Below are positions 1 through 3,186 of a stretch of 64,000 bases of DNA, in pieces. The translations under genes were made by a program, and so were the position numbers. The stretch comes from an uncultured delta proteobacterium (GTDB taxonomy: Bacteria > Myxococcota_A > Polyangia > Fen-1088). The DNA lies in contig CAVYGB010000001.1 in NCBI GenBank assembly GCA_963767925.1, positions 352,001 to 416,000 of the forward strand, given 5' to 3'. The notes beneath the pieces are model-generated. The model ran no database searches, was not told the DNA's origin, and saw nothing but the letters and a program-made list of their open reading frames with translations. The number at the start of each line of letters is the position of its first letter. Positions within the stretch are counted from its first letter, which is position 1.

Positions 1-748
1 CCTCGCGCAGCAGGGCCATGACCTCGAGGTGGTTTCGGATGAAGCCCAGCTCGACGTCGAGGCTCACGTATTCGTTGATGTGGCGGGTTGTGTCGTGGGG
101 CTCGGCCCGGAAGACCGGAGCCACCTCGTACACCCGCTCGAACACCCCCACCATGATCTGCTTGTAGAACTGGGGGCTCTGCGCGAGGTAGGCGGTACGC
201 CCGAAGTAGTCGACGGCGAACACGTTGGCCCCTCCTTCGGTGGCCGAGGCGACGAGCTTGGGGGTCTGGATCTCGGTGAAGCCGGCCTCGTCGAGCGTGG
301 CCCGGAAGCCGGCCATCGCCCCGGCGCCCAGCCGCAGCAGCGCGCGCCGGGAAGGGTGGCGGTTGGCCACGACGGCGTGGTCGAGCAACACGGGCAGGCT
401 CGCGCGCAGCTCACGCTTGTGCAGCGCCAGCGGCGGCAGCTCGGTGGCGAGCGAGAGGACCTCGATCTTCAGGTCGTGCAGCTCGGCGCCGCCGGGCGCC
501 TGGGGGGCGGCCAGCAGCCGGCCCTCGACCTGGATCACCGTCTCCAGCGCGGCGCCGGCTTCGATCAGGACGTGCACCTCGGCTTCCGACTCGGCGACGG
601 CCTGCACGAGGCCGCTGCCATCGCGCACCACCAGGAAGTTGAGGGCGCCCATGCGCCGCCAGGAATGCAGCCAGCCTTGTACGCACACGCGCTGGCCAGC
701 GTGCGTTTGCACCAGCGCGTACACCTCGGCCAACCGGACCCGTTCCAT
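1..748 (-). CDS. aspS: aspartate--tRNA(Asn) ligase (non-discriminating AspRS), 5' part; runs off the window
   Basis: Translated by hand from ATG 748 (GGAGG RBS 6 nt upstream): MERVRLAEVY...VQGWLHSWRRMGALNFLVVRDGSG (OB fold)...FTEIQTPKLVASATEGGANVFAVDYFGRTAYLAQSPQFYKQIMVGVFERVYEVAPVFRAEPHDTTRHINEYVSLDVE. These are class IIb motifs 1 and 2 of the short archaeal-type AspRS. Not in the ORF track because the stop lies outside the window. Confidence 0.92.
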   Translation of the reverse strand, partial: MERVRLAEVYALVQTHAGQRVCVQGWLHSWRRMGALNFLVVRDGSGLVQAVAESEAEVHVLIEAGAALETVIQVEGRLLAAPQAPGGAELHDLKIEVLSLATELPPLALHKRELRASLPVLLDHAVVANRHPSRRALLRLGAGAMAGFRATLDEAGFTEIQTPKLVASATEGGANVFAVDYFGRTAYLAQSPQFYKQIMVGVFERVYEVAPVFRAEPHDTTRHINEYVSLDVELGFIRNHLEVMALLRE

Positions 749-763
749 CGAGAGCCTCCAGAA

Positions 764-827
764 CAGCGGGTCTGCCGTGGACGCGAGAAGACGCGCCGGC
801 AGACCCGCTGGTCAGGCGCGCTTCTCG
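764..827 (-). promoter_or_regulatory. attenuator-like alternative RNA helices in the aspS leader
   Basis: Perfect 14-bp inverted repeat CAGCGGGTCTGCCG/CGGCAGACCCGCTG (810-797 / 777-764). Competing helix: CGAGAAG-CGCGCC (827-815) pairs with GGCGCG-T-CTTCTCG (797-784). Confidence 0.7.
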
Positions 828-850
828 AGATCGTCGTCGTCGTCAGGCAT
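812..850 (-). CDS. putative Asp-rich leader peptide MPDDDDDLEKRA
   Basis: ATG CCT GAC GAC GAC GAC GAT CTC GAG AAG CGC GCC TGA; GGAG lies 7 nt upstream of the ATG; the ORF ends 63 nt before the aspS start. Confidence 0.8.
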   Translation of the reverse strand: MPDDDDDLEKRA

Positions 851-978
851 GTGTGTGCTCCGGCGAGAATTCAGAATAGCGCAGCCGCGGGAACGCGCGA
901 CTGTTTTTGAGGACGGATCCGGCCCGGCCGCGTGGGAAAAAGCAACAACTCGGCCGGCGCATCGTAATCATTGGGGTG

Positions 979-2151
979 ATGACAAGCGCTTCGCTGATGC
1001 GGCTGGTTACGGTATGTGCGCTCGGCTCCGGGCTGATCGCGCAGAGGGCACAGGCCCAGGAGAGCGCCGGCGCCGGAGCGGGCGCCGCGCTGAAGCCGGA
1101 GAGCGACCTCATGAAGCGCATCGACAAGGCCGTCGTGGGCGGCGGCTTCGAGATGGAAGGCTACTGGATCTGGTGTCCCACGGTGACCAAGGGGGACGAC
1201 GGCCTCTTCCACATGTTCGCCTCGCGCTGGCCCAAGCGGTTGCCGTTCCACCCGGGCTGGATGGTGGCCTCCGAGGTGGTTCACGCCACCAGCAAGACCG
1301 CGGAGGGGCCCTACCGGTTCAGCGAGGTGGCGCTGCCCGCGCGCGGGCCCCAGTACTGGGACGGGCGCTCGACCCACAACCCCAAGATCGTGCGCCACGG
1401 CGCCACCTGGGTGCTCTTCTACATGGGCTCGACCCACCCCTTCGACGAACCGAAGCCGGAGCAGCTCACGCTCGATTCGCACTTCACCACGCTGGCCCGG
1501 GCCAGCAAGCGGGTCGGGGTGGCGACCGCCCGGAGCCCCTTCGGCCCCTGGACCCGCAAGGACGTGCCGGCGCTGACCACCAGGCCGGGGACTTACTACA
1601 GCTTCCTCACCTCCAACCCGGCGCCCTGGATCGAGAAGGACGGCAGCGTGGTGATGGTGTTCAAGTCGCGCGCCTACAAGGACAAGTACCCCTTCCAGAC
1701 GCCGATGAACCTCGGGGTGGCGCGCGCGCCCCACTTCGACAAGCCGTTTTCGGTGGTGACCGAAAAGCCCATCTTCGGCGTCGGCCACGGGGGTGAGGTC
1801 GAGGACCCGTACATCTGGAAGGACGGGCAGGGCTTCCACATGATCGCCAAGGACCAGCGGGGCGACGTCACTGGCGAGCGCCACGGCGGCCTCCTGGCGC
1901 ACTCTCCCGACGGCGTGGCCTGGAAGGTGGACCCGGCCCCCCGGGCTTACAGCAAGACGCTCACCTTCACCGACGGCAAGGTCCAGGTGATGGGTCAGCT
2001 CGAGCGCGCCTCGGTGCTGGTGCAGGACGGGGTTGTGACCCACATGTTCTTCGCGGCGATGGACGGCTCGGGCGGCTTCCAGAACGGGACCCGCACCTGG
2101 GCCCAGGTGGTGCGCCTCAAGCCCCAGCGCCCGACCGCCGCCGCCCGCTGA
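979..2151 (+). CDS. secreted five-bladed beta-propeller glycoside hydrolase (GH43/32/117-like)
   Basis: Signal peptide; YWIWCPTV, FHMFASRW, STHNPKI, SNPAP and EVEDPYIW motifs. Confidence 0.75.
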   Translation: MTSASLMRLVTVCALGSGLIAQRAQAQESAGAGAGAALKPESDLMKRIDKAVVGGGFEMEGYWIWCPTVTKGDDGLFHMFASRWPKRLPFHPGWMVASEVVHATSKTAEGPYRFSEVALPARGPQYWDGRSTHNPKIVRHGATWVLFYMGSTHPFDEPKPEQLTLDSHFTTLARASKRVGVATARSPFGPWTRKDVPALTTRPGTYYSFLTSNPAPWIEKDGSVVMVFKSRAYKDKYPFQTPMNLGVARAPHFDKPFSVVTEKPIFGVGHGGEVEDPYIWKDGQGFHMIAKDQRGDVTGERHGGLLAHSPDGVAWKVDPAPRAYSKTLTFTDGKVQVMGQLERASVLVQDGVVTHMFFAAMDGSGGFQNGTRTWAQVVRLKPQRPTAAAR

Positions 2152-2352
2152 CGCCCTCGGGTTGACCCGGGTCGGGCGGGCACGGATCCTCGTCGGGAAG
2201 GACGGGGCGGGGATCGGGCGCGGTTGCTCCCCGGGGCGGTGGACGCCGGCTTCTCAGCGGTCATCCTTCGAGCGAGCATCCCCCACGGGTTCGGCGGGAG
2301 TCTTGCTCCCCGTTGTCCGGGCGAGGAATTTTCGGTCAAGCCGTTCGGTGCG

Positions 2353-3186
2353 CTACGCGGCCTTGCGGGTGGCGGCCTGCTCGGATTCGGCGACTTCGCG
2401 CAGGAACTTCAGGAGGCCGAGCTTGCGGGCGAGCCAGAGGGCCAGACGGGGGGACAGCACCCGGATCAGCAGCAGCGGGGTGGGGGGCTTGCCGCTGACG
2501 AGGATCTCGGGCGCGCGGGTGGCGAGGGCGCGCAGGACGCCAGCGGCGACGGCCTGGGGGGTCACCTCGCCGACGGCGCCGGGGGCCGGGCGGCCCTTGC
2601 GGGCGAACATCCCCGCGTCGCGCACGAAGCCCGGGCAGACCGTCGAGATCGCCACCCCGCTGCCGTCTAGCTCGCCGGTCAGCGAGGCCCCGAAGCCCAC
2701 CAGCGCCGCCTTCGTCGCCGAGTAGACGCTGGCGAACGGCATCCCGAGGACACCCGCCATGGAGGCGATGTTGACGATGTGGCCGCGGCCGGCCGCGAGC
2801 ATGTCGGGCAAGACCAGACGCGCGAGGTGCAGCGGAGCGGTCACGTTGGTGGCCACCAGCCCGTCGATGCTGGCCGGGTCCTGCTCGTGGAAGGGGGCCA
2901 CCACCTCGAGACCGGCGTTGTTGATCAGCACGTCGAGGGCGCCGAACCGCTCGCGCGTGCGGGCCACCAGCGCGCGCCGCGAGCCCTCGTCGGTGACGTC
3001 GGTGGCGACGACCTCCACCTCGGCGCCGCCTGCGCGCAGCTCGGCGGCCACCGCTTCGAGCTTGTCGCGCGAGCGCGCCGCCAGCACCAGGCGCGCGCCC
3101 TGCCCGGCGAGCGCGCGGGCGATGAAGGGACCGAGCCCCTGCGAGGCGCCGGTGAGCACCACCACCTGACCGTTCAGCCTGGACAT
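2353..3186 (-). CDS. SDR family NAD(P)-dependent oxidoreductase
   Basis: TGASQGLG, NNAG, catalytic YSATK. Confidence 0.92.
   Translation of the reverse strand: MSRLNGQVVVLTGASQGLGPFIARALAGQGARLVLAARSRDKLEAVAAELRAGGAEVEVVATDVTDEGSRRALVARTRERFGALDVLINNAGLEVVAPFHEQDPASIDGLVATNVTAPLHLARLVLPDMLAAGRGHIVNIASMAGVLGMPFASVYSATKAALVGFGASLTGELDGSGVAISTVCPGFVRDAGMFARKGRPAPGAVGEVTPQAVAAGVLRALATRAPEILVSGKPPTPLLLIRVLSPRLALWLARKLGLLKFLREVAESEQAATRKAA

Follow-up and report, generated by a model that had tools for sequence, protein, structure and literature searches.

The locus described here raised the question of whether the short stretch of RNA in front of an aspartyl-tRNA synthetase (AspRS) gene, aspS, could sense the supply of the amino acid that the enzyme handles. 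The gene lies at the edge of a 64,000-nucleotide (nt) window, which is the whole stretch of DNA that was analysed, from an uncultured delta proteobacterium (GenBank assembly GCA_963767925.1, contig CAVYGB010000001.1, positions 352,001 to 416,000). It is read on the minus strand, as are all the leader elements described below. It is preceded by a small upstream open reading frame (uORF) with a run of Asp codons and by a long hairpin, which an earlier note made from the sequence alone had interpreted as a candidate aspartate-sensing attenuator. This interpretation was supported by comparative tests. Overall, the element is proposed to be a ribosome-sensed, attenuator-type leader for an accessory archaeal-type, non-discriminating AspRS, with a probability of about 0.72. 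The elements are present, conserved and covarying, they are tied to one clade of aspS genes, and their codons match the amino acid of the enzyme.

Direct reading of the minus strand placed the uORF, the Asp run, the stem, the Shine-Dalgarno (SD) sequence and the aspS ATG exactly where the earlier note had located them. The uORF consists of 12 codons and a TGA (850-812; ATG at 850-848, TGA at 814-812) and has a GGAG SD (861-858), as read in the sequence, 7 nt before its ATG. Codons 3-7 are five consecutive Asp codons (844-830; four GAC and one GAT), which are the proposed sensing codons. A run of five GAY codons occurred once in the 64-kb window when both strands were searched, compared with an expectation of 0.00 from shuffles. 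The 3' part of the uORF, region A (827-815), pairs either with region B (797-784) or with the SD/AUG region of aspS. One base after the uORF stop, a perfect 14-bp stem (S) begins with its 5' arm (810-797) and is closed by its 3' arm (777-764), which is followed by TTCT. Region B lies at the apex of hairpin S. It is complementary to A, and its 5' half can instead pair with 785-781 as an apical helix. The segment 763-741, the base-helix partner of 833-811, holds the aspS SD GGAGG (759-755) and the AUG (748-746). An inverted repeat of 20 nt with 90% complementarity (758-777 with 797-816) was also found, and stem S therefore continues into the SD region. The 5' part of aspS occupies 748-2 and runs off the window; the full gene (L001:928-2247, minus strand) was taken from genome locus L001 and encodes a product of 439 aa.

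Folding of the window RNA showed that the segment 870-740 folds at -65.1 kcal/mol compared with a shuffled mean of -48.4 (z -4.57), and none of 200 shuffles was as stable. The 3' end of the leader had been described in the earlier note as complementary to the stem-loop region and very likely incompatible with S, and the folds agreed with this description. The predicted A:B helix (827-815 with 797-784, T791 bulged) has 13 bp and -21.6 kcal/mol, and it is the minimum-energy fold of 829-782 (-27.2 kcal/mol), the RNA that is present before the 3' arm of S is transcribed. Stem S was predicted at -37.7 kcal/mol. In the minimum-energy fold, the 3' end of the uORF (833-811) pairs with 763-741 and buries the aspS SD and AUG in the base of the hairpin, a feature that is added here to the earlier description. 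For the segment 850-735, the long hairpin with A on the ribosome-binding site (RBS) reached -59.7 kcal/mol vs -48.7 kcal/mol with A:B enforced. The aspS RBS of the window had a mean unpaired probability of 0.24 in the free RNA, and the RBS was predicted to be sequestered in the window, the sister species (G001) and metagenome locus L136 (unpaired 0.24, 0.28 and 0.35, respectively). Pairing of B with the aspS SD was also considered and dropped, with at most about 5 weak pairs seen by eye.

Conservation of the leader was first evident in the sister species, whose AspRS was 80% identical to that of the window. G001 kept the same 12 uORF codons with one amino-acid replacement and was near-identical from the uORF start onward, and its stem differed by a compensatory swap of C:G for G:C at one pair and by a G:U in place of G:C at another. 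The divergent neighbour was a different one in G001, and the DNA upstream of the uORF did not align with the window. Beyond the sister species, modules of an Asp/Asn-rich (D/N-rich) uORF and a hairpin were found before about 25 related archaeal-type aspS genes, mostly of Chloroflexota. The relatives were sampled as 80 of 570 from genomes and 80 of 575 from metagenomes, with 79 usable loci each; genome locus L064 and metagenome locus L127, in which the match begins at the locus edge, were left out. A short Asp- or Asp/Asn-rich ORF was present 73-132 nt upstream of aspS in 7 of 79 genome loci, and 15 of 79 metagenome loci had one with at least 4 D/N in 8 residues, with one more (L098) having 3. 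At this threshold, and among the 154 loci for which 150 nt or more upstream of aspS was available, D/N-rich ORFs were present in 23 on the sense strand and in none on the antisense strand, with a mean of 2.8 in dinucleotide shuffles. The stricter threshold of 5 in 8 gave 22, 0 and 0.2, respectively.

The leaders of this kind, here called type 1, had a common order of SD, ATG, D/N run, region A, stop codon, long hairpin S with apical B, variable linker and aspS SD. Region A was purine-rich and began 3-4 bases past the last D/N codon, and an SD-like motif was present before 21 of the 22 type-1 leaders. The number of Asp plus Asn codons ranged from 3 to 15, and the leaders of the window, G001 and L136 had Asp codons only. 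Asp and Asn were exchanged between the near-identical loci L094, L101 and L107. The D/N run was the sole peptide feature kept in the whole family; the length, the other residues and the reading frame over A varied. The codon register of the A helix differed between the window group and the L094 group, and therefore selection on this part appears to act on the RNA and not on the peptide. A second small ORF, out of frame or overlapping the stop, was seen in L022 (1380-1500) and in the L094 group (L094:819-885), where it begins directly behind the SD-like region A and continues through S as far as the aspS SD. This ORF was dropped as a functional part, being absent in the window and different by eye in L013 and L098. 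An anticodon- or codon-like triplet in the hairpin loop, as in tRNA or synthetase mimicry, was likewise dropped since it was not conserved among the leaders.

A covariance model (R1) built on the core of S and its flanks gave one match in the window, on the sense strand at 759-833 (57.8 bits, E 5e-13). Matches with E ≤ 1e-4 were found in 19 of 162 sources and all had a D/N uORF, that of L067 being a degenerate 6-codon remnant with two Asp codons. Loci L039, L057 and L063 had the type-1 layout with different helix sequences and were missed by R1, and L114 was marginal. A search of 150 further whole Chloroflexota genomes with R1 produced 7 matches. The five best all overlapped a D/N uORF and had an aspS ortholog (64-73% identity) immediately downstream, while the two weakest (E 6e-4 and 7e-4) showed neither feature. 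Among 150 other genomes of the phylum of the window, there was one weak match (G201, 29.1 bits), which was rejected as a family member because it consisted of a plain long hairpin, located at the end of a contig, with no D-run uORF. The leader was present in the cultured Ktedonobacteria Dictyobacter alpinus, D. aurantiacus and Tengunoibacter tsumagoiensis, which makes it experimentally accessible. One of the five best Chloroflexota matches, L171 (G334:C213), had a complete D/N leader and hairpin, and the aspS sequence directly after them was limited to the final ~90 codons (query residues 351-440), which may be either an internal deletion or a mis-join.

Covariation was evaluated on alignments fitted to a model. 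On alignment A5 (18 sequences), 86.0% of the cells of S and A:B together were paired vs 33-51% when the partners were slid by 1-3 columns, and 13 of the 21 pairs changed on both sides. The covariation score was 0.344 vs at most 0.149, and none of 500 shuffles was as high, with the caveat that related sequences can beat shuffles without any structure. In the core of S, 8 of 10 pairs had double changes across homologs on the same alignment. For A:B alone, in 18 and 23 sequences, 81.8% and 83.3% were paired compared with 36-61% when slid, and the scores were 0.322 and 0.330 vs at most 0.197, again with no shuffle of 500 as high; the count of changes on both sides was not beyond that of the shuffles (157 and 58 of 500). 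These values are undercounts for the window, G001 and L131, which were shifted by one column on each side, so that their true pairs were counted as unpaired. The model R2, with A:B as the modelled helix, also left the window group out of register, which lowers the A:B counts. In addition, the cognate duplexes of A with the downstream sequence summed to -352 kcal/mol in 15 representatives, whereas permuted pairings averaged -305; of 20000 permutations, 9 were as good. Per sequence, A:B was modest compared with shuffled downstream sequence (z +0.3 to -3.8). On these alignments, both S and A:B covary across homologs. Thus, the two checks named in the earlier note, conservation of a short Asp-run uORF and covariation of both helices, turned out in favour of the proposal, with Asp-rich and often Asp/Asn-rich uORFs standing in the same place before orthologous and related aspS genes.

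A second and unrelated leader (type 2) was found in the same aspS clade. The four loci concerned, L083, L143, L151 and L154, formed a separate clade of four in the AspRS tree. Their uORFs (L083:1258-1338, L151:724-807, L154:754-807 and L143:752-832) had 17-27 codons with six Asn/Asp codons in a row. Two loci were scanned for terminators, and a hairpin with a U-tract was called as an intrinsic terminator in both L151 and L143. The same GC hairpin and U-tract were visible in the alignment for L083 and L154. As read from the alignment, pairing would be possible between the G-rich end of the type-2 uORF and the terminator's 5' arm, which would be a classical attenuator layout. The presence of N/D runs before aspS in two unrelated designs is the strongest argument that the codons, and not the peptides, matter. 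After the Asn/Asp run, the type-2 uORFs also had a strongly conserved C-terminal part rich in Pro, Gly and Arg, and this conserved tail may reflect RNA structure alone or an arrest peptide as well. In L143, a near-consensus sigma-70-like promoter (11 of 12) ended 10 nt before the uORF start.

The type-1 leaders in Chloroflexota generally stood behind a T-box. A T-box-like motif, defined by a regular expression of our own, was present within 600 nt upstream of aspS in 68 of 79 genome loci. The Rfam T-box model RF00230 gave a full-length match in 5 of the 7 leader-bearing loci searched (L013:993-1265, L022:978-1275, L053:1007-1302, L057:971-1251 and L038:906-1216), with 45.9-65 bits and E values of 3e-7 to 4e-12. 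The scores of these Chloroflexota aspS T-boxes are well under the Rfam gathering score of 93, and standard Rfam annotation would therefore miss them. GAC was found at or next to the specifier position in two T-box alignments, the specifier triplet being our own reading. The motif lay 43-117 nt upstream of the uORF start in 18 of the 22 type-1 loci; therefore, the leader module is inserted between the T-box terminator and aspS. The type-1 loci without the motif were the window, G001, L063 (350 nt available) and L136 (174 nt available), and positions 1-3000 of the window produced no match to RF00230 even at E ≤ 10. In the Chloroflexi genomes then analysed, a passage of PMC2494555 describes the lack of an Asn-tRNA ligase and formation of Asn-tRNA(Asn) by the indirect route, which would explain Asn codons in the leader of this enzyme.

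The enzyme itself was assigned with curated models. The window AspRS scored over the cut-offs for non-discriminating AspRS of both NF003483 (523 bits vs 353) and TIGR00458 (377.1 vs 368.4). By these model scores, the window aspS is archaeal-type and non-discriminating, as the earlier note had stated, and charging of tRNA(Asn) is predicted. The source genome (G000), which is 83.8% complete in 13 contigs, also contained a bacterial-type aspS matched in several frames, an asnS over the cut-off (633 bits), a gatB matched in pieces and three asnB-family genes over the cut-off. Since bacterial-type aspS, asnS, gatB and asnB are also present, the window AspRS is an extra copy. The bacterial-type aspS (G000:C8:1370750-1372535) and gatB (G000:C10:1195492-1196933), both outside the window, were split over different open frames, a pattern that points either to frameshifts introduced by assembly errors or to genuine pseudogenes. 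Were the housekeeping aspS truly broken, the window AspRS would be essential and not spare.

The window-type aspS was found at E ≤ 1e-40 in the sister species G001, and at the same threshold in none of 35 genomes from other genera of the same family and none of 24 further genomes of the class. The nearest AspRS relatives among the matches listed had 55-71% identity and were almost all from Chloroflexota. In a tree of 163 proteins (FastTree, SH-like supports only, midpoint root), the window and G001 grouped with metagenome locus L136 (support 94) inside a 97-row Chloroflexota clade (support 99). Since the gene is rare in relatives and nested in the Chloroflexota clade, horizontal acquisition is the simplest reading, and the window aspS was probably acquired in this way together with its leader. 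Close relatives of the Chloroflexota-type AspRS were also seen in metagenome-assembled genomes assigned to other phyla, namely L028, L063 (Proteobacteria bacterium), L074 (Armatimonadota), L077, L079 and L082 (Actinomycetota), which may reflect either repeated horizontal transfer or binning error. One of these, L063, had a type-1 leader without the T-box motif, like the window. The 3.5-Mb genome of the type-2 locus L083 (G069) had two archaeal-type aspS-like genes (C182:1611-2882 and C379:3669-4943) beside a bacterial-type copy, and the pair scored alike with the asnS model, at 215 bits and under its cut-off.

In the proposed mechanism, the uORF would be translated from its own SD, and scarce Asp-tRNA(Asp) would cause ribosomes to linger on the five Asp codons. 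The OFF state would be one long hairpin of about -60 kcal/mol with S closed and with A and the stop codon paired with the aspS SD/AUG. In the ON state, A would pair with B in the apical region of the hairpin; this pairing is sterically incompatible with S and would leave the aspS RBS free. The nascent RNA would fold into A:B first, before the 3' arm of S exists. A ribosome running through A to the stop codon would melt A:B, S would then close, and after release of the ribosome A would close onto the RBS, giving low expression. A ribosome stalled on the early Asp codons would leave A:B standing and one stalled on the late codons would cover A, and in both cases the RBS would be open. An RBS kept open would raise the synthesis of AspRS. 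That ribosomes stall, that expression rises on Asp-tRNA(Asp) shortage and that translation is the regulated step are inferred here; the regulatory logic has good grounds, and the molecular output is a hypothesis.

Several results weigh against this proposal. The A:B pairing never wins at equilibrium, as it is 11 kcal/mol less stable than the long hairpin, and the ON state therefore needs a kinetic argument; a kinetic switch is favoured over a purely equilibrium version of the model. Imposing a ribosome footprint in equilibrium folding opened the window RBS modestly, from an unpaired probability of 0.24 in the free RNA to 0.24-0.39 with a stalled ribosome and 0.42 with a ribosome at the stop codon. 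RBS occlusion in the leader loci (n=22, median 0.39) was not above that in leaderless related aspS loci (n=129, median 0.43; one-sided Mann-Whitney p 0.27), and by this comparison occlusion was rejected as a general rule for the output of the family. The L094 group had an open RBS in every state (unpaired 0.73-0.88), and thus SD sequestration is not a universal output. The small footprint effects, the lack of family-wide occlusion and the open RBS of L094 together imply that the regulated step may differ between lineages, or may not be translation initiation. The leader Asn codons also did not track the absence of asnS in the 10 genomes checked, where D+N leaders were expected without asnS and D-only leaders with it. 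The asnS gene was over the cut-off in G000 and G001 (D-only leaders), G064 and G065 (D+N) and G068, and was not over the cut-off in G061-G063 (D+N), G066 (seven D, one N), G067 (D only) and G069 (type 2). Finally, the loci behind the uORF counts are related and some are near-copies (L101, L103, L107 and L109), and the counts overstate their independence.

In a first alternative, Asp codons are sensed and the output is transcriptional: S would be a terminator or pause site that lacks a U-tract or depends on a factor, or the choice of fold would expose or hide a Rho loading site. The absence of RBS occlusion in the L094 group, and its failure to distinguish leader-bearing loci, speak for this alternative; the type-2 leader of the same clade clearly uses termination, and several low-GC homologs of type 1 were U-rich shortly after S. 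However, no intrinsic terminator was called in positions 600-1200 of the window, where S is followed by TTCT and GGAGG with no U-tract, and as the Chloroflexota loci use U-tract terminators for T-boxes and type-2 leaders, a terminator would be expected to look canonical here as well. Uncoupling by a stalled ribosome also normally favours Rho, which would give the wrong physiological sign unless the ribosome masks the loading site. Transcriptional output is thus considered unlikely, although it is the most credible of the alternatives. Intrinsic termination in particular is unlikely in the window leader, since no U-tract follows S while canonical terminators are in use at the Chloroflexota loci, and Rho-dependent control or mRNA stability may be the output. 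The earlier note had preferred translational or Rho-dependent control over intrinsic termination; the preference fits the window, where no terminator-like site was found and the SD/AUG lies in the base of the hairpin, but RBS occlusion does not extend to the family in general.

The codons themselves speak against readings in which nothing is sensed. The uORF could be translated for constitutive translational coupling or as an acidic micropeptide, with its Asp/Asn richness unrelated to charging. Any ribosome at the stop codon opens the base helix in the footprint folds (from 0.24 to 0.42, as given above), and leader genes without regulatory codons are common according to a passage of PMC4833913. 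Against this, the D/N run is the sole peptide feature kept across the family, Asp and Asn are swapped between near-identical loci, the amino acids are exactly those whose tRNAs a non-discriminating AspRS charges, and an N/D run recurs in the unrelated type-2 leader of the clade; this reading is held to be improbable. It is less probable still that the uORF is a chance ORF beside an ordinary hairpin, for instance one belonging to a repeat, to some structural element or to a terminator that serves another transcript. High-GC DNA is rich in stable hairpins and spurious ORFs, and the G201 match was a plain hairpin of this sort, but the conservation, the covariation, the strict linkage to aspS and the zero expectation for the codon run all stand against it. 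The ribosome-sensed leader is retained as the preferred reading. A fuller version of it is put forward tentatively, and somewhat doubtfully as a whole. In this version, the element belongs to a new class of Asp/Asn leader peptides on non-discriminating AspRS genes that stands in series behind the Chloroflexota T-box. It would work as a terminator-less kinetic switch in which a completed uORF resets the ON pairing A:B to the OFF hairpin. It would also have moved horizontally with its gene into the lineage of the window and would there put a spare AspRS under inducible control, possibly to stand in for a housekeeping enzyme that is starved or inhibited.

The surroundings of the leader are compact. 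The leader-aspS transcript must start from a promoter within the divergent intergenic region of 128 nt (851-978), which has no room for a T-box; no sigma-70-like promoter was called in this region. An Rfam search of the first 3 kb of the window gave no meaningful match, the hits being microRNA, snoRNA and lncRNA models far under threshold. The product of the divergent neighbour (979-2151, plus strand) is 390 aa long, has a signal-peptide-like N-terminus and gave no NCBIfam match at E ≤ 0.001.

If the reading is correct, a single Chloroflexota mRNA would read the charging of tRNA(Asp) through the T-box and the supply of Asp-tRNA(Asp) and Asn-tRNA(Asn) through the ribosome, a two-sensor leader of which none was found described. 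The family would also offer two independent designs, one with and one without a canonical terminator, and an example of a regulatory leader that travels with its gene between phyla. It bears further on how the work of Asp and Asn decoding is divided in bacteria with two AspRS enzymes. What appears to be new is the use of Asp/Asn as regulatory codons, the aspS target, the terminator-less two-helix design, the arrangement in series with a T-box in the donor phylum and the co-transfer with the gene. The earlier note knew of no characterised Asp leader for aspS, and full-text literature searches likewise gave neither an Asp or Asn version of leader-peptide attenuation nor such a leader of aspS; the survey of Lopatovskaya et al. 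2010 (Mol Biol 44:128) might bear on this point. In PMC2659441, aspS of Shewanella appears only among predictions labelled "tRNA synthetase leader", and the passage concerned connects no leader peptide with it.

Compared with known systems, the type-1 leader shares features with several. As with other aspS leaders of the T-box kind, the same gene function would be regulated by tRNA charging, but the leader module is a separate element, and the window has no T-box match and only 128 nt to the divergent gene. Leader-peptide attenuation is textbook knowledge for trp, his, thr, leu, ilv and phe, and pheST of E. coli is a synthetase operon. The element resembles these classical attenuators (trp, his, thr, leu and pheST) in its short SD-led uORF, its run of cognate codons and its mutually exclusive helices that would be set by the position of the ribosome, and the type-2 leaders fit the classical kind fully. 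It differs in that the window has no U-tract terminator and its alternative helix joins the uORF with the hairpin loop, sharing no strand with a terminator. It also differs from the attenuators found described in that Asp is the regulatory amino acid, joined by Asn in related loci, and an archaeal-type aspS the target. In the window, the element would work more in the manner of the translational attenuation of ermC and cat, with which it would share a leader ORF, a ribosome held in that ORF and a downstream SD/AUG in a hairpin, here predicted to pair with the end of the uORF. However, the stall is caused there by a drug and the nascent peptide and here, as proposed, by hungry codons, and RBS occlusion is not general in the present family. 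The nearest functional precedent, by analogy, would be the auxiliary tryptophanyl-tRNA synthetase genes of Streptomyces (trpS2/trpRS1), in which a second, seemingly dispensable synthetase copy is under a cognate-codon leader and is induced when charging fails. By its title, the study of Vecchione and Sello (2010) is said to concern such a Streptomyces auxiliary tryptophanyl-tRNA synthetase. In S. avermitilis, trpS2 is preceded by a candidate attenuator, according to a section of PMC1262725. The Streptomyces genes differ from the present one in the amino acid and the phylum, in their terminator-based mechanism and in their link to an inhibitor, no such link being known here, but the arrangement of an extra synthetase behind codons for its own amino acid would be the same in both.

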